Of a stretch of 64,000 nucleotides of DNA, positions 7,037-56,719 are shown piece by piece; within the stretch, counting starts at the first letter, position 1; each line of letters begins with the position of its first letter. The position numbers and the translations under genes are program-made. This DNA is from an uncultured Actinomycetes bacterium (GTDB lineage Bacteria; Actinomycetota; Acidimicrobiia; IMCC26256; DASPTH01), in the NCBI GenBank assembly GCA_963841415.1, contig CAWJCN010000004.1, positions 171,470-235,469 on the forward strand, written 5' to 3'. The notes below the pieces were generated by a model. That model had not been told where the DNA came from, did not search any database, and saw only the letters and a list, made by a program, of their open reading frames with translations.

Positions 7037-8194
7037 TCAGCCCGCGGTGGGCGCGGCTGCAGGCTCGTCGGCGAAGAGCTGCGCGACTGTCGACGCCGCG
7101 CTTGCGTCGAGCTCGGGCTGCACGTGGCTGTAGATATCGAGCGTGATACCAGTCGTCGCGTGGCCGAGACGCTCGCTCACCACCTTGGGGTGCACGCCCG
7201 CTTGAAGCGCGAGCGTCGCCCAGGTGTGGCGGAGGTCGTGCAAACGAATCTGCTTCACGCCAGCGCGCCGCGCCGCCGAGCCGAAGGCGCGGGTGAAGCG
7301 GTCCGGGTGAAGCGGCCCTCCGAGTTGATCGCAGAACACCAAGCCGGCGTCTTGCCATGCATCTCCAGCAACGATGCGCTCTTCGAGCTGGCGTGCACGG
7401 TGTGCCTTCAGCGTCGCGACGGTTTCAGTATCGAGCGAAACACTGCGGCGAGACCGCGCCGTCTTCGGCGTCGACCACACCAACTCCTTGTCGACGACGC
7501 TCAGTGCCCGGTTGATCGCGACTCGGCCCGCGCCGAGGTCGACGTCTGACCACCGAAATCCCAGCGCTTCACCGCGACGCATCCCCGTCGTGGCGATCAA
7601 TCGGTAGGCAGCTTCGTTGCGATCACCGTGCACCGACGCGAGGAACGTGCGCATCTCGGCGGCGTCCCACGTCGACAGCTCGGGGCGGGTTGGCGTAGGT
7701 GGCTTCACCAGCGCGGCCACGTTGCGCTGCACGAGCCCGAAGCGCTCGGCATCGGCAAGGCAGCGGCGCAGGGCGATGTGGACGTTGCGAACCGTCTTCG
7801 CCGAGAGCCCGCCGCCATAGCGATGGCCTTCCGCGAGGAGCGATGCGTACAGCTCCTCCACATCGAGGGGTCGCAGCGCTTGGAGCCGGATGCGACCGAG
7901 GCGATCGGTGACTCTTCCAAGCCCATTTCGGTAGTCGCGGAGCGTGGACGCTCGAATCTTGGGAGCGATGGTGACGAGCCACCGTTCGATCCACTCGCCG
8001 ACCGTCTGCGGGTCGGGTGCGACGTAGCTGCCGTCAGTCACCGACCCGATCAGCTCGGACATGGCGTCTTCGGCAGCGCGCTTCGTGCGGAACCCGCTCT
8101 TGGTCTGCTGTCGCCGGTGACCCGTTGCCGGGTCGCGGCCGACGTCAACGACGTACGCCCAGCTCTTGCCGCGCCGATGCACATGACCTCGCAC
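7037..8194 (-). CDS. int: Tyrosine-type site-specific integrase
   Basis: 385 aa, GTG start. Phage-integrase catalytic region HDLRHTWATLALQAGVHPKVVSERLGHATTGITLDIYSHV. Confidence 0.9.
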   Translation of the reverse strand: MRGHVHRRGKSWAYVVDVGRDPATGHRRQQTKSGFRTKRAAEDAMSELIGSVTDGSYVAPDPQTVGEWIERWLVTIAPKIRASTLRDYRNGLGRVTDRLGRIRLQALRPLDVEELYASLLAEGHRYGGGLSAKTVRNVHIALRRCLADAERFGLVQRNVAALVKPPTPTRPELSTWDAAEMRTFLASVHGDRNEAAYRLIATTGMRRGEALGFRWSDVDLGAGRVAINRALSVVDKELVWSTPKTARSRRSVSLDTETVATLKAHRARQLEERIVAGDAWQDAGLVFCDQLGGPLHPDRFTRAFGSAARRAGVKQIRLHDLRHTWATLALQAGVHPKVVSERLGHATTGITLDIYSHVQPELDASAASTVAQLFADEPAAAPTAG

Positions 8195-8434: not shown

Positions 8435-9160
8435 ATGCCTCGATGGCTCGACCGGTTGCTCGATCCCAGCGCGCACATCGCCCACCGGCTGCAGACCACG
8501 GTCGTCGAACCCGCGTGGCGGCGGGTCACCGACCTCGAGTCGTTCGTCCCGGTCAGCATCGCGATCGGTGTCGCCGTCGTGCTCGAGGCAACGCTGCCGC
8601 ATCGCGTCGCGCAGCTGCGGTGGATGTTCGTTGTCGCCAGCGTGTTGTTCTTCGTCCTCCTGTTGGTCGTCAACCCGCGCCGGGCGGCGGAGCGACCGCG
8701 CCTCGTGCGCGGATCGATGCTCTCGCTCGTCGCGTTGCTGAGCATCGGCAACATGTTCTCCGCCGCGGCGCTGGTGATCGACCTCGTCAACGGCGAAGGC
8801 ATCCGCGACGCCGGCAAGCTCCTCCTCACCGGCGGCGCGATCTGGCTCACCAACGTCATCGTGTTCTCGCTGTGGTACTGGGAGTTCGACCGCGGCGGAC
8901 CGCTTGCGCGCGCTCACCGACCCGACGCCGCGCTCGACTTCCTGTTCCCGCAGATGGACAAGCCCGAGCTCGCCCCGGTCGACTGGCAGCCCGAGTACGT
9001 CGACTACCTGTACCTGTCCTTCACGAACGCAATGGCGTTCAGCCCCACCGACGTGATGCCGCTGTCTCGCTGGGCCAAGCTCACGATGCTCGTGCAGTCG
9101 CTCGCATCGCTGATGATCGCCGTCTTGGTGATCGCGCGGGCAGTGAACATCCTGCGCTGA
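8435..9160 (+). CDS. DUF1345 family membrane protein
   Basis: 241 aa, multi-TM. Family-like LWYWEFDRGGP...DFLFPQM...YLYLSFTNAMAFSPTDV. Confidence 0.7.
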   Translation: MPRWLDRLLDPSAHIAHRLQTTVVEPAWRRVTDLESFVPVSIAIGVAVVLEATLPHRVAQLRWMFVVASVLFFVLLLVVNPRRAAERPRLVRGSMLSLVALLSIGNMFSAAALVIDLVNGEGIRDAGKLLLTGGAIWLTNVIVFSLWYWEFDRGGPLARAHRPDAALDFLFPQMDKPELAPVDWQPEYVDYLYLSFTNAMAFSPTDVMPLSRWAKLTMLVQSLASLMIAVLVIARAVNILR

Positions 9161-33527: not shown

Positions 33528-34022
33528 TCAGGCGCGGGCGAAGACGGGGAACCAGTGCTGGAGGAGCTGGCTCACCTCGAGCGCGCACTCGTCGCCGGCG
33601 GTCATGCCGCGCGCGACCTCGGCCGCGGCGCGGGCGACGTGGGTGACGTCGATCTCGGGGAGCTCCATCCCCTGCGCCTCGGCGGCGCGCTGCACCGTCT
33701 GCGCCGCGTCCCACGCGGCGCGGGCCGCGTGGCGGCTGCGGTGCGAGTGACGGAGAGCGCGGTCGATGGCGATCGTGGCGTGCCAGGCGTCGACCTCGTC
33801 ACCCACGGTGTCGCTGGCGAGCGAACGCGCGACGTGCTGGATGTCGGCGACCGTGAGCTCGGCGAGGGCGGCGTGGAACTCCATCAGATCCATGCCTGAC
33901 ATTCTCGGCACAACTCGACCTCGAGATGGGGGATTTTCGGGGTCTTGACGAGCAATTCCCGGTGAACGGCATGTTTCCCGACGCGCAGGCCACCTCGCGG
34001 TCGCCGCTCGGACCTGCCTCAT
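33528..34022 (-). CDS. Hypothetical protein
   Basis: The C-terminal 125 aa look coding. Start is ATG 34022 (preceded by the GGAATCGACC element) or ATG 33902. Confidence 0.45.
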   Translation of the reverse strand: MRQVRAATARWPARRETCRSPGIARQDPENPPSRGRVVPRMSGMDLMEFHAALAELTVADIQHVARSLASDTVGDEVDAWHATIAIDRALRHSHRSRHAARAAWDAAQTVQRAAEAQGMELPEIDVTHVARAAAEVARGMTAGDECALEVSQLLQHWFPVFARA

Positions 34023-34072
34023 CGGTCGATTCCGTTGCGCCGTCTCGCCCTCCGGGCACGGCTCCACTTCAT
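34019..34072 (-). CDS. Candidate relay mini-ORF D (MKWSRARRARRRNGIDR)
   Basis: Its ATG overlaps the ppx stop (AGATGAAG). Its TGA overlaps the downstream ATG 34022 (CGATGAGG). It contains the GGAATCGACC element. Confidence 0.35.
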   Translation of the reverse strand: MKWSRARRARRRNGIDR

Positions 34073-34998
34073 CTCGTCTGGCTGCGGACCAGGCCGTCGA
34101 GGATGTCGGCCTCGCTGACCAGCATCTCGTCGAAGCCGAGCACCCGGAAGATGCCCACCAGCACCGCGGTACCGCCCACGATCACGTCGACGCGGCCCGG
34201 TTCGAGCCCGGGGTTGTGGGCGCGCTGCTCGGCGCGCTCGGTGGCGAGCGTCCGGAACACGTCCTCGGCCGCGTCGCGCGTCAACACGAAGTGGTGGATC
34301 TTCTCCGGGTCGTACTCGGGGAGACCCTGCTCGACCGCGGCGACGGTGGTGACAGTGCCCGCGAGGCCGACCAGCGTCGCCGCCTCGGACGCGCCGGGCA
34401 CCAGGCGCGTCACTTCGGCGACGAGGTCGCGCACCGCGGCGACGGCGTTCGACAGCTCTTCGGGCGCGGGGGGATCGGAGTGGAGGTACTGCTCGGTGAT
34501 GCGTACGCACCCCATGTCGAGCGACACCATCCTGTTGGGCGCGTCGGTGCCGAGCACGAACTCGGTGGAGCCGCCGCCGATGTCGACGACGAGATACGGC
34601 GCGGGCGCGTCGAGATCGGCGGTGGCGCCGAGGAACGACAACGCGGCTTCCTCGTCACCGGAGAGCAGCTCGGGCGTGACGCCGAGCGCGGCGTGCGCGG
34701 CGGTGAAGAACTGGTCGCGGTTCGACGAGTCTCGCGCCGCGCTCGTTGCGGTCGCGCGCGCCGTGGTGACGCCGTGTTCGTCGAGCACGGTCCGGTACTC
34801 GCGCAGCACCGCGATCGTGCGCTCGATTGCGTCCGGCGCCAGGGCGCGCGTGCGATCGACGCCCTGCCCGAGTCGGGTGATGCGCATCCGCCGATCGAGC
34901 GGGACGACCTTGGTGTCGCGCGGCGAGGTGCCGTCGACGTCAGCGACCAGGAGCCGGACGGAGTTCGTGCCGATGTCGACCGCAGCGACTCGCTTCAC
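34069..34998 (-). CDS. ppx: Exopolyphosphatase / Ppx-GppA family phosphatase
   Basis: VAAVDIGTNSVRLLVADV motif. GTG 34998 overlaps the DUF501 stop (GTGA); the ORF track extends to 35112. Confidence 0.85.
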   Translation of the reverse strand: MKRVAAVDIGTNSVRLLVADVDGTSPRDTKVVPLDRRMRITRLGQGVDRTRALAPDAIERTIAVLREYRTVLDEHGVTTARATATSAARDSSNRDQFFTAAHAALGVTPELLSGDEEAALSFLGATADLDAPAPYLVVDIGGGSTEFVLGTDAPNRMVSLDMGCVRITEQYLHSDPPAPEELSNAVAAVRDLVAEVTRLVPGASEAATLVGLAGTVTTVAAVEQGLPEYDPEKIHHFVLTRDAAEDVFRTLATERAEQRAHNPGLEPGRVDVIVGGTAVLVGIFRVLGFDEMLVSEADILDGLVRSQTR

Positions 34999-35480
34999 AC
35001 CCGTTCCCCGTCGGGCGCGGTCGCGGTCGTGTGCGCCAGTCGTTCGGCCGTCCAGCGGCCCACTGGGTCGTCGGCCCCTGCCAGCAGGTTGGCGTAGTGG
35101 GCGTGCAGGCACTTGACGCCCTCACGGGTGCCGCCCACCCCGCCCGACGGTCGGGGTCCGGTGTGGTCGGGAGCGATGCTCGCGTCGCGCGCGGCCGCGT
35201 ACGCGTCGTGGGCCGACCGCACAGACACCGGATCCACCGCGGCCTGGGCGTCGCGCACGCCGCCGGCGGCTTCCAGGCGGGAGATCCGCAGGTTGAGGTC
35301 GGGATCGACCAGCCAGTACCGGGTGGGCATCGGCGTGCCGGCGCGAGTGAACGGCGCGTTGCACACCACCACCGGGGCACCGGCGACGTCGCGCACCACC
35401 ACCTCGAAGTCGGCTTGCGGCGCGCGCCCGAGCCGGTCGGTGACCGCGGCGACGTCGTCCGCGTGGTGGACGGGCATCAC
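34995..35480 (-). CDS. DUF501 domain protein
   Basis: 161 aa. PTRYWLVDP...GGVGGTREGVKCLHAHYA family core. Same position as the Rv1025 homologue. Confidence 0.8.
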   Translation of the reverse strand: MMPVHHADDVAAVTDRLGRAPQADFEVVVRDVAGAPVVVCNAPFTRAGTPMPTRYWLVDPDLNLRISRLEAAGGVRDAQAAVDPVSVRSAHDAYAAARDASIAPDHTGPRPSGGVGGTREGVKCLHAHYANLLAGADDPVGRWTAERLAHTTATAPDGERV

Positions 35481-35554
35481 TCGGGTCGATTCCGCTCGGG
35501 CGTCCCAGCCGTCCGGCCACGGCTCCGCGTCATCTCCCGCTTGATGTCCATCAC
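35477..35554 (-). CDS. Candidate relay mini-ORF C (VMDIKREMTRSRGRTAGTPERNRPE)
   Basis: Starts 2 codons after the ftsB TAA, in the same frame. Its TGA overlaps the DUF501 GTG/ATG (GAGTGATG). It carries the GGAATCGACC element. Confidence 0.35.
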   Translation of the reverse strand: MMDIKREMTRSRGRTAGTPERNRPE

Positions 35555-41112: not shown

Positions 41113-41685
41113 CTAGCTGCCGACGGGGCAGCCGCTCGGCGGGCAGACGCCATGGCGCCCGCGCCAGCTGCCGTAGCGCGGATTCACGTAGATGTCGGCA
41201 CCGCGCAGCGCCTTGGTGAAGAAGGCCTGCTGCTTCGCCTGCGTCGTCAGCCCCATCGCCTGCACGAGCGCGGTGCCGTCGACCAGGACGTCGATGGCGC
41301 TGGACGGTGCATTCGGATATTGCTTCTCGTACTGCGACCGGAGCTGGTCGCTCGTGGACTTCGGCACGCCGACGTCCTGCCGCGCGGCGGCATCGAGCAG
41401 GAGCTGGGTCTGGATCCGCTGGTTGAGCCAACTCGCCGTGACCGACGACGCGATCGAACCGTCGCTCGGGCTGAGGACCGTACCCTGCTTCTCGAGGTTG
41501 GTGGCGATCGTCTTGCTGCCGGCGAGCCACTCGAGCTCGTCGTCGACGGTGGACTGCGAGACCTGCGTGCCGTTGGCCTTGTAGGCGAAGGCCTGCCCAC
41601 CCGCGGCGACCGCGGCGATGGCCGCACCGACCACGCAGAGGACGGTGACGACAGCGACGGCGACGAGGGCGAGACGACTTCTCAC
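41113..41685 (-). CDS. Membrane-anchored hypothetical protein (SurA N-terminal-domain-like)
   Basis: GTG 41685 gives VRSRLALVAVAVVTVLCVVGAAIAAV (signal/anchor). Conserved position between mfd and mazG. Confidence 0.5.
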   Translation of the reverse strand: MRSRLALVAVAVVTVLCVVGAAIAAVAAGGQAFAYKANGTQVSQSTVDDELEWLAGSKTIATNLEKQGTVLSPSDGSIASSVTASWLNQRIQTQLLLDAAARQDVGVPKSTSDQLRSQYEKQYPNAPSSAIDVLVDGTALVQAMGLTTQAKQQAFFTKALRGADIYVNPRYGSWRGRHGVCPPSGCPVGS

Positions 41686-41750
41686 GTTGGTCGATTCCGT
41701 TCCCGCGTCCCGGCCATCCGGCCACGCCTCCACTGCATCTCGCGGCTCAT
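41682..41750 (-). CDS. Candidate relay mini-ORF B (MSREMQWRRGRMAGTRERNRPT)
   Basis: Its ATG overlaps the mfd stop (CCATGAGC). Its TGA overlaps the downstream GTG (ACGTGAGA). It carries the GGAATCGACC element. Confidence 0.4.
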   Translation of the reverse strand: MSREMQWRRGRMAGTRERNRPT

Positions 41751-49252: not shown

Positions 49253-49354
49253 ATGGGCTCACTGATCAAGAAGCGCCGCAAGCGCATGCGGAAGAAGAAG
49301 CACAAGAAGCTTCTCAAGAAGACGCGCTGGCAGCGCCGTCAGCAGGGCCGCTGA
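49253..49354 (+). CDS. Small basic ribosomal protein bS22-like (33 aa)
   Basis: MGSLIKKRRKRMRKKKHKKLLKKTRWQRRQQGR closely resembles the actinobacterial MGSVIKKRRKRM...KHRKLL bS22 family. Too short for the ORF track. Confidence 0.7.
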   Translation: MGSLIKKRRKRMRKKKHKKLLKKTRWQRRQQGR

Positions 49355-49445: not shown

Positions 49446-50339
49446 TCAGCTGGCGAGGCGGACGCCGCGGGAGACGCTGGTCGTGCCGACGACGGGCACG
49501 CGTAGGCGTCGCCTGACCTCCTCGACCAGCCCGGGAAGCCGGCGCGCGTCCGCGACGGGCACCACGTAGGCCGACCCGCTGCCCGCGAGCAGCGCGGGCG
49601 CGCCGGTGGCCGCTTCGAGCGCGGCGCGGAATTCGACCAGGCGCGGCTCGAGCATCTCGGCCGCCGGCTCCAGGTCGTTGACGAGCTCGTCGACCAACGC
49701 CGTCAGCCGGCGCGGCGCCGGCACCATCCGCTCCGACCGCGGGCCGCCCAACCGGTCCCACGCCTTGTAGACGTCCGGAGTCGACAGCCGGAACGGCGGG
49801 ATGGCCACCACGAACGCGAGTCCGGTCGGCACCGACGCCGGCTCGATGATCTCGCCCCGCCCGCGGATCCAGGCTGCGCCGCCCCGCACGCAGAACGGCA
49901 CGTCCGACCCCACCTCGGCCGCGAGGGCGAGGACACCGGCATCGTCGACGTCGACGTCGAGCAGCTCACGCACCGCCAGCAGGGCGGCGGCCGCGTCGGC
50001 CGACCCGCCGCCGAGCCCACCGCCGGCGGGGATGTGCTTGCGCAGCACGAGCCGCACGCCGTGCCCCGACCGTCCCGCGCGCACGAGCAACTTCTCGGCC
50101 GCGATGAAGGCGAGGTTGCGGTGGTCGGACGGCACGTCGTCGCCGAGCTCCACCCCCGAGACCTCCACCTGCACACCACCCGGCGCGGGCACCGCGAAGA
50201 CCTCGATCACGTCGTGCGGCTGACCGAGCGACACCACCAGCGACTCGAGGTCGTGGAACCCGTCACGCCGGCGGCCGAGCACGCGCAGCGACAGGTTGAG
50301 CTTGGGATATGCGGTGGCGCGGACGCGGGCAAGTCTCAT
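49446..50339 (-). CDS. ispE: 4-diphosphocytidyl-2-C-methyl-D-erythritol kinase
   Basis: AYPKLNLSLRVLGRRRDGFHDL and the GHMP motif PAGGGLGGGSADAAA. ATGA overlap with the rsmA stop. Confidence 0.9.
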   Translation of the reverse strand: MRLARVRATAYPKLNLSLRVLGRRRDGFHDLESLVVSLGQPHDVIEVFAVPAPGGVQVEVSGVELGDDVPSDHRNLAFIAAEKLLVRAGRSGHGVRLVLRKHIPAGGGLGGGSADAAAALLAVRELLDVDVDDAGVLALAAEVGSDVPFCVRGGAAWIRGRGEIIEPASVPTGLAFVVAIPPFRLSTPDVYKAWDRLGGPRSERMVPAPRRLTALVDELVNDLEPAAEMLEPRLVEFRAALEAATGAPALLAGSGSAYVVPVADARRLPGLVEEVRRRLRVPVVGTTSVSRGVRLAS

Positions 50340-51186
50340 GCTGCCTCCGCCGCGCTGCGGGCCACCGCGGCCCAGTCGTCGAGACCGAGCGCCTCGGCCC
50401 GTGCGGTCGGGGCGACGCCCGCCGCCGCCAGCACCGCGGGCGTGGCGTCGCCGAGCACCGGCGCGAGCGAACGGCGCAGCATCTTGCGGCGCTGCGCGAA
50501 GCCGGCGCGCACGAGCACGAACAGGTCGTCGGCCGACGGCACGCTCACGGGTGGTTCCGACCGGCGGTGCAGCCGCACGAGCGCCGAGTCGACTTTGGGG
50601 CGCGGGATGAACACGGTCGGCGGGACGAGCCCCACGACCTGCGCCTCCGCGAAGTACGCGACCTTCACCGACACCGCGCCGTACTGCGGGTCGCCGGGGC
50701 CGGCTGCCAACCGCTCCCCCACCTCACGCTGCACCATGACCAGGATGCGCTCGACCGCATCGGCCTCCTCGAGCAACCGGACGACCACCGGCACCGCCAC
50801 GTTGTAGGGCAGGTTCGACACGCACGTACGCGGCGACGGCGGCGGCGCGAGCAGTGCGTCGAGGTCGACGCTCATCGCGTCGCCGGGCTCCACTCGCACG
50901 ACGGCACGGGACCGGCGTCGACCACCACCGCGCGGAGCACGTCGGCCAGCCGGTCGTCGAGCTCCAGCGCCACGACGTCGTGGCCGGCGTCGAGCAGGGC
51001 GAGGGTGAGCGACCCGAGACCGGGGCCGATCTCGAGCACCGGCGCCGCGGCGGGCAACTCGGCCAACGCCACCACCCGGCGGGCGGTGTTCGGGTCGGCG
51101 AGGAAGTTCTGGCCCAGGCTCCGCTTGGGGTGGAGCCCGTGCTGGCCGAGCAGCGCGGTCACCGTCGCCGGGGTCAGGAGAGCCAC
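50336..51186 (-). pseudogene. rsmA: 16S rRNA (adenine1518/1519-N6)-dimethyltransferase RsmA/KsgA, frameshifted as sequenced
   Basis: N-terminal ORF 50872..51186 (KRSLGQNFL, LEIGPGLGSLT) and C-terminal ORF 50336..50899 (SNLPYNVAVP). There is a 1-nt frame change near 50895-50905. Confidence 0.85.
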
Positions 51187-51190
51187 GATG

Positions 51191-51424
51191 ACGGTCGATT
51201 CCGCTCCGGCGTCCCGGCCGTCCGCCGTGATGGTTCGCTCACTGCGAGCCGGGATACCCGGCTCGCAGCCGTTCGCTCACACCCACGCCTCCGCTGCATC
51301 TCCATCACAACGGTCGATTCCACTCCTGCGTCCCGGCCGTCCGCCGCGATGGTTCGCCCACTGCGAGCCGGGATACCCGGCTCGCAGCCGTTCGCTCACA
51401 CCCACGCCTCCGCTGCATCTCCAT
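51191..51424 (-). repeat. Two tandem 115-nt copies (119-bp period, 4 mismatches) of the GGAATCGACC intercistronic element, each with an internal 12-bp-stem hairpin
   Basis: Direct comparison of 51191-51305 with 51310-51424. Hairpin CTGCGAGCCGGG-TAT-CCCGGCTCGCAG is flanked by direct repeats GTGAGCGAAC. Located between the rpfB stop and the rsmA start. Confidence 0.95.
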
Positions 51425-51467
51425 GGGACGAGGAAACTACAAGGTGGGCGTCACCCGTTCCGCACGA

Positions 51468-53084
51468 TCACATGCTCCATTGCGGCCAGTGCAGGACGTT
51501 GTTGGCGCAACCCCACGAGTCGAAGCCGTACTTCGCGTAGATGCGCTCCGCGACGATGATCTGCTCCTCGCGGGTGGCGAGGCCGGCATTCGGCGCGAAC
51601 TCGGTACCGCCGAAGGCTCGCCAGGTGCTCCGGGCGATGCCGAGACCGCCGTCGAAGCCGTTGGCGTTGGAGTCGACGGTGTCCCAGCGCCCGCCCGACT
51701 CGCACTGCGCGAGCTCGTCCCAGTGGGGGTCGGCGTAGGTGCCGTAACCGATGATCTCGGGTGTCGGCGCCACAGTGGGCACCTCCGACACGACCTGCTT
51801 GTCACCCTTCTCGCCGTTCTCGACCCGTTGGCGGTAGGTGATGGTCATGGTGCCGTTCCGACCGTCCTGGATGACGCGGGTCTGGCCGATGGCGAGCGTG
51901 GGGTCGGCCTGTTGCACGGTGTCGAACAGGATCGGCTCGGGGCTCGAGGTGGTGACGGCGTTGACGCGCACGACCGCCACCGAGTCCCCGTCGTGCAGCA
52001 CGGTGTCGGGTGAGGGGATCGCGTAGTCGTCGCCGACGAGCTTCACCTTGTACGACTGGAGCAGCTCGTCGACGGTGCGCGACGGCGAGTCGAACGTGAC
52101 CATCTGGTTGTCGATCTTGAGCGAACCGGCGACGCGCGTGCGGAACACAACGGTCGCGCCCGCCGCGAGCCGGCCGGGATCGTTGCGGACGGCGGTGAGC
52201 TTCCCGAGCTTCAGCTGCTTCTCGAGCTTGTCGGCGCTCGTCTCGACGGTGGGGACGGTGCGGATGCGACCGTCGACGTCGACGGTGACCGGGAACGCGC
52301 GCAACACGTCGACGTGCAGTCCGTCGTGGAGCGAGCTCGTCGCGCTGGGGACGACGACGTCGCCCGGACCGAGGTGCACGCGCTCGGCCGCGAGCAACGC
52401 GCCGACGGAGGAGGCTTCCGAGCGCAAGGGGGTGCGGGTCCCGTCGACGACGAGGGTGATCTCGGACCCGGCCGGTTGCATCGCCCGCTGCGCGATCCAG
52501 GCGCCGCCCAGGGCGGTGAGCACCACGAGCACGGCGACGACGAGCACCCGGGGCGCGGGCAGGAACCGGTGCCGGCGGCGGGGACGGGGAGTGCTGCCCG
52601 GCGGCGGGCCCTCCTCGAGCAGCTCGGTGACCGGGGGGAGCTCCTCCGGGCTGGGCAGCGGGAGCCACGAGGCGGGCTCGGGGGCTTCGGCCCGGGCCGG
52701 AGAGGGCGCGGAGCTCGCTTCGGCCGCGGCCTGGGCGTCTGCCACCACCGCTTCCGCCTCGGCCACCACCGCGGCCTGGTGTTCGGGGTGGGGATCGAGG
52801 AGGGCGTGGAGGGGAGGGAGGCCGTCGAGGTCGGCGGGCAGCGGGAGCCAGGCGGCCGCGTCGTGCGGCTCCGCACGCGCCGGTGACGGTGACACCGCCG
52901 CCTCGATCGCGGCCTCGATCGCGGTGAGGTCGATCACGTCGGGCTCGACCACGATCTCGCTCGCGTCGTCGAGCAGCACCTGGATCGACGGCAACGCGCT
53001 CGGGTCGGGCACGGGCAGCCACGCGGTGGCGTCGTGCGGTTCCGCGCGCGCGGGTGACGGACCGATCTTGCGCGAGACGTGCAA
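51468..53084 (-). CDS. rpfB: RpfB-like resuscitation-promoting factor (3x DUF348, G5, Rpf transglycosylase domain) with a long repeat-containing N-terminal extension
   Basis: C-terminus WDELAQCESGGRW...GGLGIARSTW. G5 segment QTRVIQDGRNGTMTITY. TM helix VLVVAVLVVLTALGGAWIA. The start is uncertain (TTG 53084/53090); codons upstream to 53267 have low GC3. Confidence 0.8.
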   Translation of the reverse strand: MHVSRKIGPSPARAEPHDATAWLPVPDPSALPSIQVLLDDASEIVVEPDVIDLTAIEAAIEAAVSPSPARAEPHDAAAWLPLPADLDGLPPLHALLDPHPEHQAAVVAEAEAVVADAQAAAEASSAPSPARAEAPEPASWLPLPSPEELPPVTELLEEGPPPGSTPRPRRRHRFLPAPRVLVVAVLVVLTALGGAWIAQRAMQPAGSEITLVVDGTRTPLRSEASSVGALLAAERVHLGPGDVVVPSATSSLHDGLHVDVLRAFPVTVDVDGRIRTVPTVETSADKLEKQLKLGKLTAVRNDPGRLAAGATVVFRTRVAGSLKIDNQMVTFDSPSRTVDELLQSYKVKLVGDDYAIPSPDTVLHDGDSVAVVRVNAVTTSSPEPILFDTVQQADPTLAIGQTRVIQDGRNGTMTITYRQRVENGEKGDKQVVSEVPTVAPTPEIIGYGTYADPHWDELAQCESGGRWDTVDSNANGFDGGLGIARSTWRAFGGTEFAPNAGLATREEQIIVAERIYAKYGFDSWGCANNVLHWPQWSM

Positions 53085-53308
53085 CGGCAACGTCGAGCGT
53101 CCTCGTACTGGATCGCTCCCGGCCGCGCTACGGCCGGGAGGGCTTTGCAGTTGCTCGGTGATCGGGACGCCCCTTGCATCGGCGTTGGTTCTGCGCGTCG
53201 ACCGAGAAGCGCTTCCACCCGCTTCGGACGAAGTGATCACGGTAGTCAACCTCCCCCGGTGCGGCAACGATCGTCGCCCGCCGGCCCGGATCGGTGCAGG
53301 TCAGCAGG

Positions 53309-55757: not shown

Positions 55758-56630
55758 CTATAACCCCGGCGAACGACGCCGGTTCGCTTGCTTGAGGCGC
55801 GTGGCGGCGTCGTAGGTGCGGCGACGGGGGACGCCGAGGTCGCGCGCGACCCGGGCCGCGGCGTCGCGCGTCGACAGGCCCTCGCCGAGCGCGGCGGTGA
55901 CGTGGGCGTCGATCTCCGCGTCGCTGGCCTCGGGCGGCGGCGGTGCGGGCGCGACCACGATGACGTGCTCCCCGCGCGGCTCTCCGAGCTCGACGTGCCC
56001 GACCGCCTCGTCCAGCGTCCCGCGCCACACCTCCTGGTGCAGCTTGGTGAGCTCGCGGGCGACGGCCACCTCCCGCAACGGTCCGCACGCGCCCAGCAAC
56101 TGGGTGAGCGTGCCGTGCACCCTCCGGGGCGACTCGTAGAGCACGACGGTGCGGATCTCGGGCACGAGCCCGGCGATGCGGTCGCGGCGTTCGACGCCGC
56201 GCCGGGGCAGGAACCCCTCGAAGACGAAGCGGTCGGTCGGGAACCCGGAGAGCACGAGCGCCATGAGCACCGCGCTCGGACCTGGGACCACGTCGACGGC
56301 AAGCCCCGCGTCGACGCACGCCCGCACGAGACGCTCGCCCGGATCGGAGATGCCCGGCATCCCGGCGTCGGTGACGTACGCGACACATCGTCCGTCGCGC
56401 ACCGCGTCCACGACCCAGTCGGCGCTCTGCTGCTCGTTGTGCGCGTGCACCGAGCGCAGGCGCCCGGCCGCGGGCACGCCGAGGTGGCTGAGCAGGGCCC
56501 GGGTCCGGCGCGTGTCTTCCGCCGCGATGACGTCGGCGTCGCGCAGCGCCTCCACGACTCGTGTCGACACGTCACCGAGGTTGCCGATCGGCGTCCCGAC
56601 CAGCACCAACACACCAGGATCATCGGTCAC
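55758..56630 (-). CDS. rsmI: 16S rRNA (cytidine1402-2'-O)-methyltransferase
   Basis: LVLVGTPIGNLGDVS..., DAGMPGISDPG motifs. GTG start. Confidence 0.9.
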   Translation of the reverse strand: MTDDPGVLVLVGTPIGNLGDVSTRVVEALRDADVIAAEDTRRTRALLSHLGVPAAGRLRSVHAHNEQQSADWVVDAVRDGRCVAYVTDAGMPGISDPGERLVRACVDAGLAVDVVPGPSAVLMALVLSGFPTDRFVFEGFLPRRGVERRDRIAGLVPEIRTVVLYESPRRVHGTLTQLLGACGPLREVAVARELTKLHQEVWRGTLDEAVGHVELGEPRGEHVIVVAPAPPPPEASDAEIDAHVTAALGEGLSTRDAAARVARDLGVPRRRTYDAATRLKQANRRRSPGL

Positions 56631-56719
56631 GCTTTCCCGCTCTCGGTGCTGCGCACCGGGCCGCTCGGGCCCCGCTCCGTTGCTCGCCGGGATACCCGGC
56701 TCGCGGACACTTCGCTCAT
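56627..56719 (-). CDS. Candidate relay mini-ORF E (MSEVSASRVSRRATERGPSGPVRSTESGKA)
   Basis: Its ATG overlaps the DUF192 stop (GCATGAGC). Its TGA overlaps the rsmI GTG (GCGTGACC). It contains the GG-TAT-CC hairpin and the GAGAGCGGGAAAGC 3' motif. Confidence 0.4.
   Translation of the reverse strand: MSEVSASRVSRRATERGPSGPVRSTESGKA

Follow-up and report, generated by a model that had tools for sequence, protein, structure and literature searches.

What are the two nearly identical 119-nt sequences that precede rsmA in an uncultured acidimicrobial genome, and how could rsmA still be expressed behind them? The locus lies in the window, the whole stretch of 64,000 nucleotides that was analysed (contig CAWJCN010000004.1, assembly GCA_963841415.1). 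Homologues of its IspE put the window in an Acidimicrobiia MAG (metagenome-assembled genome). Around the array the minus strand is used throughout, and an rpfB-like gene is followed by a gap of 281 nt, by rsmA/ksgA and by ispE (49446-50339). An earlier reading of these letters by a model, here called the original prediction, had described a relay element between rpfB and rsmA that was interrupted by a hairpin and then duplicated. That reading is essentially right and the observation is real. We consider it likely that the array is a two-unit tandem repeat of the mycobacterial interspersed repetitive unit (MIRU) type, placed on the rsmA start codon, and that its composite units relay ribosomes to the gene through small open reading frames (mini-ORFs).

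The repeat itself is unambiguous. Tandem Repeats Finder reported 51191-51424 with a period of 119 nt, 2.0 copies, 96% matches and a score of 440. The units lie head-to-tail over 51187-51424 on the minus strand, the upstream one at 51306-51424 and the downstream one at 51187-51305, and their 115-nt cores (51310-51424 and 51191-51305) differ at four positions, as the original prediction had it. One of these differences is synonymous in the mini-ORF frame (TCA/TCG) and the others change S/G, P/Q and R/W; three further differences between the 119-nt units all fall in the 4-nt junction. Each unit holds one copy of the 27-nt palindrome CTGCGAGCCGGG-TAT-CCCGGCTCGCAG (51242-51268 and 51361-51387), for which dinucleotide shuffles of the window give an expected number of chance matches of 0.00. 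The mini-ORF of the upstream unit (51305-51424 including the stop) encodes 39 aa, MEMQ...NRPL, and its TGA shares an A with the ATG of the next one (TGATG). The second mini-ORF (51174-51305 including the stop, 43 aa) runs past the rsmA GTG and stops at 51174-51176, 11 nt within rsmA. Both this chain and the amino acid changes are as originally described.

The outer part of the unit belongs to a dispersed repeat, which we call family A. One genome per GTDB species was searched with the 3′ part of the unit, GGGACGNNNNRNYGGAATCGACC, as the pattern, which matched at least 112 stretches, and the matches were validated with an nhmmer profile built from the short copies; the family counts given here and below are among the matches listed. 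The profile gave at least 130 family-A hits in at least 82 arrays of 1-6 units, comprising 57 single units, 12 pairs, 7 triplets, and arrays of four (3), five (2) and six (1, in L020). Tandem duplication, as seen at rsmA, is thus normal for the family, with 25 of 82 arrays holding 2-6 units. Validated loci come from ∼20 MAGs, all labelled Acidimicrobiia, “uncultured Actinomycetes” or Actinomycetota, and three MAGs have at least 11-13 loci each. Pattern matches in Streptomyces, Corynebacterium, Proteobacteria and others, among those listed, gave no match to the nhmmer profile, and viral contigs scanned for family A and for the hairpin yielded chance matches in unrelated sequence only.

The family-A unit measures 52-53 nt, with long forms of 110-122 nt, and falls into subfamily 1 (GGAGGCGTG...GGACGCC) and subfamily 2 (GGAGCCGTG...GGACGGC). 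Among the matches listed, 62 nt is the dominant repeat period (26 of 52 intervals); at rsmA the period is 119 nt. Both values equal 3n-1, as expected for 1-nt TGATG overlaps. A CRISPR array was considered and rejected, as the 62-nt period recurs in full, without spacers and with no more than 1-2 differences. Three short copies occur elsewhere in the window, all on the minus strand, which agrees with the original observation of single copies without the insert: one at 41684-41741 between mfd and a 190-aa ORF (5′ ATGA, 3′ GTGA), one at 35479-35536 that ends in a TGATG overlap with a DUF501 gene, and one subfamily-2-like copy, with an ATGA overlap at each end, at 34020-34075 between a ppx/gppA gene and a 164-aa ORF. 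In L048, an array of five units (7322-7626) is found between a PhoR/PnpS-like histidine kinase gene (below NCBIfam cut-offs) and a gene for an OmpR-type response regulator. The last unit of that array reads in frame into the regulator ATG, with no stop.

The rsmA units differ from the short copies by a block of sequence. From GAGATG to GACC they measure 110 nt and the short copies 53 nt, which leaves 57 nt extra. This block is a hairpin module, located at 51344-51401 in the upstream unit (stem-loop 51361-51387) and at 51225-51282 in the downstream unit (stem-loop 51242-51268, flanks GTGAGCGAAC and TGAGCGAAC), both on the minus strand. BLAST of the insert against the fetched loci gave matches outside family A in L039, L104 (two), L069 (two), L084, L053, L063 (two), L022, L113 and L040, and in the window at 56686-56718. 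The original prediction had proposed to look for the palindrome with its flanks in the genome; outside family A, GAGCGA-flanked hairpins are found in several MAGs (L039, L104, L069 and L084) and in the window. Solo copies from L039, L104, L069 and L084 have the consensus GAGCGAACGG-CCGCGAG(C/G)CGGG-TAT-CCCG(G/C)CTCGCAG-n-GAGCGAGCCATC..., where the stem shows compensatory changes and GAGCGA stands on both sides of the hairpin. The 57-nt insert represents one unit of family B, a second relay repeat that is also found by itself.

These solo copies change the reading of the 10-nt direct repeats, which had been said to resemble a target-site duplication. The repeats do flank the palindrome; the 3′ copy is exact (TGAGCGAAC) in the downstream unit only, the upstream unit having TGGGCGAAC. 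The short family-A copies lack TGAGCGAAC, so the repeats are not a duplication of relay sequence. Since GAGCGA flanks the solo copies and the relay sequence is without it, the 10-nt repeat is either part of the family-B unit or its preferred (fixed) target. In the window, a solo family-B relay occupies 56609-56719 on the minus strand between a DUF192 gene and rsmI, with its hairpin at 56686-56718, 5′ ATGA and 3′ GTGA. The DUF192 stop lies within CATGAGCG, and a mini-ORF of 30 codons, MSEVSASRVSRRATERGPSGPVRSTESGKA, ends in a TGA that overlaps the rsmI GTG. The orthologous loci L022 and L063 have one and two family-B modules, in frame, with ATGA at each end.

Composites of the two families are a rare subtype (2 of about 75 loci, among the matches listed) and not a one-off, because L044 holds a second one, with a diverged 69-nt family-B-like insert in the same place of family A and in frame. 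The proposal that a hairpin element was inserted into a relay cassette that then duplicated is supported, with a qualification. The hairpin is a separate dispersed element and tandem duplication is usual; the insertion need not have occurred at the rsmA locus, because the L044 composite shows that composites can persist as a subtype.

A closer look at relatives with and without the element defines its position. The L117 locus (∼80-86% DNA identity) is empty and reads ...CCTTGTAGTTTCCACGTCCC|ATGGCTCTGCTC, that is ...CCTTGTAGTTTCCACGTCCC|ATG|GCTCTGCTCACC, with the rsmA ATG directly after the spacer, and the rsmA site of L002 is likewise empty. Two further contigs, P0002 and P0005, were compared by gene coordinates only. 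In P0002, whose IspE is 98% identical, rpfB ends at 472 and an intact 285-aa rsmA begins at 516, leaving a gap of 43 nt, which is the 281 nt of the window minus 2 × 119; the rsmA-site element is probably missing from this relative too. In L001 (IspE 92%), the two ends of the unit are joined at 9113-9149 as ATGAAGATGC|GGAATCGACCGTCATAGTG, or ATGAAGATGC|GGAATCGACCGTCATA|GTG, and the remnant forms an 8-codon ORF with a TAGTG overlap. Copy number in relatives, which the original prediction had marked for checking, is thus 0 at the rsmA site of L117 and L002, a remnant in L001 and 2 in the window. In a metagenome scan for the spacer, L117 was the one contig of relevance, and a second match (L118) was due to chance.

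The element sits exactly on the rsmA start codon. Its 5′ edge retains the former ATG, and at its 3′ edge the displaced gene is preceded by an RTG, the repeats of the filled site being ATGG...GTGG. Two other sites in the window can be compared in the same way. At mfd, relatives read CGCC-ATGA-AGC and the window reads CGCC-ATGA-GCCGC[unit]AAC-GTGA-GAAG (41684-41749); GCTAGCCTCCGCA, upstream of this junction, is conserved in the window and relatives. Between the DUF192 gene and rsmI, relatives (L001-L004) have an intact GC-GTGA-GCGA, and the window has the 111-nt family-B relay with ATGA...GTGA. Filled sites are flanked by RTG-containing repeats of 3-5 nt, which could be ends of the element instead of target-site duplications. 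The units may have spread by transposition with such a 3-5-nt RTG-containing duplication, or by recombination or slippage. A fragment of an RsmA homologue, P0129, has the N-terminus MEMQTPATV in place of MALLTPATV. This start would be a footprint of the first 12 nt of the unit, with four native codons replaced, presumably by imprecise deletion.

The whole family-A unit is predicted to fold. RNAalifold on 45 unique short copies gave one long imperfect hairpin across the unit, with 14 pairs and 97.6% of cells paired; pairing between the halves is imperfect over the full length, and there are no sharply defined terminal inverted repeats. Compensatory changes are found at 15:37 (CG 21 / GC 20), 20:29 (GC 22 / CG 20) and 10:42 (CG 35 / UA 9), and none of 500 shuffles (0.091 ± 0.009) attains the covariation score of 0.223; with slid partners the score is at most 0.056. 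The position of the 57-nt insert corresponds to the apical loop of this hairpin. In the fold of the composite unit (-62.4 kcal/mol, z = -3.8) the outer family-A stems remain intact and a 13-bp inner hairpin is added.

Subfamily-1 copies typically end in GGAATCGACC-n4-5-TGATG-G..., where the ATG is the start of the downstream gene, and their 5′ junction often overlaps a stop codon (TGATGGAGATG, TAATGGAGATG or TAGGAGATG). Of 44 unique overlap-bearing copies, 34 have an ORF that is open from the ATG of GAGATG to exactly that stop, where one third would be expected (p = 3e-9). The “relay cassette” of the original prediction is therefore a real repeated element with a mini-ORF chained by stop/start overlaps. 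Unit and tail lengths compensate for one another: in 14 of 16 units of 52 nt (3-nt loop) TGATG is preceded by a 5-nt tail, in 10 of 11 units of 53 nt (4-nt loop) by a 4-nt tail, and the long variants (110 nt at the rsmA site, 122 nt in L044) have 4-nt tails, so that the distance from ATG to TGA is divisible by 3 for all compensated lengths. Of the evidence for a role of the mini-ORF, this compensation is the strongest. The peptide depends on the frame, ...GTPERNRPx* as against ...RRSGIDxx*, and since the frame is kept while the peptides differ, selection appears to act on translatability and on the end point of the ORF, and not on the product. Orientation, with gene strands taken from a codon-model gene caller, adds to this. 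Among the matches listed, subfamily-1 arrays with both neighbours co-directional are sense in 28 cases and antisense in 1 (p = 1e-7).

It could be argued that the hairpin explains everything, and that these are structural repeats like repetitive extragenic palindromes (REPs), acting as DNA or RNA hairpins only (in the stability or processing of mRNA, or by binding protein), with mini-ORFs and overlaps that are incidental or come from the insertion target and go untranslated. The strong conservation of the hairpin with compensatory changes would fit such a role, as would the perfect GC-rich hairpin of the family-B stem and the orientation-neutral subfamily 2, which is often found in convergent spacers (as at the 3′ end of the bS22 gene in L002). 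A pure hairpin role, however, leaves unexplained why unit and tail compensate to keep ATG...TGATG in frame while the peptide changes, why subfamily 1 has a 28:1 orientation bias, and why the 57- and 69-nt inserts preserve the frame. We regard this explanation as unlikely.

How could ribosomes cross the array? The spacer between rpfB and rsmA (51425-51467, 43 nt, minus strand), which relatives without the repeat have in common with the window, has a terminator-like hairpin at 51442-51456, followed by TTGTAGTTTCC, and a -10-like TAGTTT at 51434-51439, 9 nt before the first ATG; no Shine-Dalgarno sequence is present in these 43 nt. L001, L117 and L002 have a hairpin of different sequence directly after the rpfB stop, then TTGTAG(T/G)TTCC, which places TAGKTT 8-9 nt before the ATG. 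The arrangement fits an rpfB terminator that overlaps the -10 element of a leaderless or near-leaderless rsmA mRNA. The reading of TAGTTT as a -10 is based on position and conservation only, and a sigma-70 consensus scan of 51000-51700 found no promoter. Among the matches listed, 6 of 24 RTG-GAGATG arrays carry TANNNT at a distance of 6-9 nt before the first ATG, compared with 0.2% in the background.

From these elements we propose the following sequence of events. The outer part of each unit is a family-A relay, ATG-GAGATGCAG ... CGGAATCGACC-n4-TGATG, and the inner part one family-B unit, a GAGCGA-flanked hairpin of 12-13 bp, accommodated in the apical loop of A with the frame kept. The original rsmA ATG, retained at the 5′ edge and 9 nt past TAGTTT, would now start mini-ORF 1, and initiation there is probably leaderless or near-leaderless. 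A ribosome would end mini-ORF 1 at TGATG, restart on mini-ORF 2, terminate 11 nt inside rsmA and re-initiate at the displaced GTG. With re-initiation at each junction, insertion and duplication would leave expression of rsmA and ispE largely intact, and the repeats could be selfish or near-neutral DNA that persists at gene starts and stop/start junctions because it is translated through. We infer both the use of the promoter and any effect of copy number on expression.

Several points weigh against the proposal of translational relay at rsmA. Translation and re-initiation are themselves inferred from sequence alone. Re-initiation at the rsmA GTG is the weakest step, because L001 has a clean TAGTG overlap where the window has TCG in place of the TAG: the downstream mini-ORF is without a clean overlap, stops 11 nt inside rsmA, and coupling would need back-scanning. 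TAGTTT may be the U-rich tail of the rpfB terminator and not a promoter. No transposase or mobilising function turned up, although no transposase search was made. The frame statistics overstate the number of independent events, because the copies share descent. Nor is relay behaviour a property of the whole family, because subfamily 2 has no orientation bias (12 versus 9, among the matches listed) and the overlap motif is missing in 36 of 46 of its copies listed. Many subfamily-2 copies (L080, L081, L066, L077, L096, L076) end in GGAATCGACC-ATCGAGGAGG with a start codon a few nt on, and judging by this motif they appear to bring a Shine-Dalgarno-like GGAGG in place of the stop/start overlap.

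The quality of the assembly also bears on the array. The rsmA gene (50336-51186, minus strand, GTG start 51184-51186) is recognised by alignment and by Pfam RrnaAD matches at 5-75 and 84-261, and is split between two frames (50872-51186 and 50336-50899). The frame break lies near 50893-50915, with the indel within a length-variable linker, and may reflect an error of the long-read assembly or a genuine frameshift; in relatives, including the 98%-identical one, rsmA is intact at 284-289 aa. Because rsmA is frameshifted, the source is probably a long-read MAG, and for that reason the exact copy number and the four differences could include assembly error, a further point against the array as we read it. 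In the related long-read contigs L003 and L004 many genes are fragmented (split glmU, mfd, ychF and metG), which points to frequent indel errors across these assemblies. The duplication itself could also be regarded as a long-read artefact, with a unit wrongly collapsed or expanded. The frameshift next to the array and the broken genes of L003 and L004 would suit such an origin, but the two units differ at four core positions and in the junction, and arrays of 2-6 units are common and are present in short-read assemblies too (L042, L029, L096, L097). We therefore think an artefact very improbable.

A regulatory role specific to this locus fares no better. The position in the 5′ region of rsmA and the high degree of structure would suit a cis-regulatory RNA or leader peptide for rsmA-ispE, such as an attenuator or a riboswitch related to the rpfB switch. 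L117 and L002, and probably the 98%-identical relative, are without the element, however, and the same element stands before unrelated genes (a DUF501 gene, a membrane protein gene, response regulator genes) in arrays of up to six units. At gathering score, Rfam found only a tRNA in the whole window, and even at E ≤ 1 it gave no match in 51100-51520 or in L048 7250-7700. The original prediction had pointed to the RNA switch reported in the 5′ untranslated region of M. tuberculosis rpfB; this link has no bearing here, since the element is found downstream of rpfB and relatives do not have it. Control of this kind we hold to be extremely unlikely. That the mini-ORFs encode functional arginine-rich micro-proteins can be dismissed with hardly any reservation: the ORFs are open, ATG-started and recurrent, but their 3′ half is read in two frames across copies, subfamily-2 copies carry stops (ATG-TAG) or run on at random, and nucleotide conservation exceeds peptide conservation.

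The closest analogue of families A and B, though not named in the original prediction, is the MIRU. MIRUs (Supply et al. 1997, as later papers summarise them) are units of 40-100 bp in about 40-50 copies, intergenic in polycistronic operons, with ORF ends that overlap the flanking genes. They carry imperfect terminal and GC-rich internal inverted repeats, and their filled and empty sites show tetranucleotide direct repeats (PMC3184786). Insertion at start codons, with an ORF coupled to the downstream gene, has been described (PMC12548453), as have 77- and 53-bp variants within one senX3-regX3 array (PMC4213456, PMC2453075). The units studied here, compared with these published descriptions of MIRU architecture, likewise are intergenic, measure 52-53 nt (110-122 nt in the long form) and form tandem arrays of varying copy number. 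In both cases an in-frame block distinguishes long variants from short ones (77 versus 53 bp for MIRU, 110 versus 53 nt here), a small ORF overlaps the flanking stop and start codons (TGATG, ATGA or GTGA here), and filled sites have short direct repeats of about 4 nt (ATGG...GTGG and ATGA...GTGA here). GC-rich internal inverted repeats are found in both, and the imperfect pairing of the two halves of the unit may correspond to the imperfect terminal inverted repeats of MIRUs. The same orientation as the flanking genes, a MIRU feature, is seen in subfamily 1 and not in subfamily 2, and the L048 array between a PhoR-like histidine kinase and a response regulator recalls the MIRUs in senX3-regX3.

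In sequence the two do not match. Local alignment of the family-A and family-B consensus with MIRU motifs A (TGACGAGGAGCGGCGCAGATGGCA) and B (GGCGCCGGTGACGATGCAGAGCGTAGCGA), taken from PMC6286618, was not significant, with scores within the shuffle range; the best local score was 22 against a null of 14.5 ± 2.8, with p about 0.02 in one of six comparisons. The host here is of the class Acidimicrobiia and not Mycobacterium, with no validated Mycobacterium copy among the matches listed. Unlike MIRUs, the families described here have a whole-unit hairpin with covariation, are nested one in the other, and include a sister subfamily without coupling features. As there is no significant motif similarity and the hosts are Acidimicrobiia, we do not file families A and B in the MIRU sequence family, although by analogy they would work like MIRUs. 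Literature searches for MIRU-type intergenic repeats brought up none described outside Mycobacterium.

Other repeat classes share fewer features. With the REP, bacterial interspersed mosaic element (BIME) and REPIN sequences of Proteobacteria, the units have in common that they are short, GC-rich extragenic hairpins, dispersed in many copies and often clustered. REP sequences are untranslated, without stop/start overlaps, and tied to RAYT transposases and to a GTAG that is conserved. The family-A consensus showed no GTAG motif, and REP sequences do not characteristically form head-to-tail arrays of identical units with a 3n-1 period. Miniature inverted-repeat transposable elements (MITEs) such as Correia/NEMIS, ERIC and RUP are about 100-400 bp long, target TA or similar, and have no coupling ORF. 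They resemble the units in being intergenic and in bearing inverted repeats, and the units would likewise be non-autonomous and co-transcribed with their neighbours, with putative short duplications at filled sites, but the units here are much smaller, lie at start codons and carry a coupling ORF. Rickettsia palindromic elements (RPEs) are also palindromic repeats tolerated by keeping a reading frame open; RPEs, however, lie inside protein-coding genes and become part of the protein, whereas the units here are separate intergenic mini-ORFs. The proposed step at each junction has its own precedent in termination-reinitiation coupling at ATGA/TGATG overlaps and in “ribosome delivery” by upstream ORFs (PMC6728339, PMC12548453). 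The TGATG, ATGA and GTGA junctions and the lack of a Shine-Dalgarno sequence before the downstream start are the same; the difference is that here a repeat provides the upstream cistron, and several such cistrons can be chained.

Taken as a whole, the families resemble a known kind of element and form a new and well-supported analogue of it, to which they add nesting, covariation, frame compensation and a sister subfamily that is not coupled. MIRUs have served as typing markers for 25 years, while their preference for junctions, the translation of their ORFs and their spread are still largely conjecture. To our knowledge, descriptions of MIRUs restrict them to mycobacteria. An independent set of families with this architecture, in a class of actinobacteria far from mycobacteria, provides comparative material that the nearly clonal M. 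tuberculosis cannot give: many filled and empty sites, two length classes with a frame rescued by the tail, an uncoupled sister subfamily and nested composites. The hypothesis of translationally neutral insertion thereby becomes directly testable. There are practical consequences as well, in that the arrays create spurious small ORFs, N-terminal extensions (an RsmA beginning MEMQ) and problems in MAG assembly, and could be used as strain-typing loci for uncultured Acidimicrobiia.

A more general picture is possible, and we offer it tentatively, thinking it rather doubtful as it stands. Acidimicrobiia may harbour at least two unrelated tiny families (38-62 nt) that home to start codons and overlaps, duplicate RTG(A/G) and stay “transparent” by means of a coupling mini-ORF wrapped in a hairpin, one of them inserting in the loop of the other with the frame kept. 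If this is true, “relay repeats” would be a general class of selfish DNA that evolved convergently in high-GC Gram-positives, with MIRU as one instance; a start-codon-directed insertion or excision machinery would exist, and array length could tune downstream translation.

Some smaller observations concern the surroundings and the wider family. The rpfB-like ORF occupies 51468-53267 on the minus strand, with its stop codon at 51468-51470, and is of the DUF348-G5-transglycosylase type in relatives, the L001 orthologue having PF03990, PF07501 and PF06737. Truncated first units that keep only (C)GGAATCGACC are common (L066, L099, L069, L005, L072, L030, L031), and L001 has the two ends joined; internal deletions that recur in this way and stop at similar points suggest that one breakpoint is preferred or that excision has left a footprint. 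Between a tRNA gene and ispE, the window has a gene for a bS22-like ribosomal protein of 33 aa (MGSLIKKRRKRMRKKKHKKLLKKTRWQRRQQGR) at 49253-49354 on the plus strand, with no family-A copy there. In L002 (10927-11075, minus strand), a family-A copy overlaps the bS22 stop codon in a convergent spacer.

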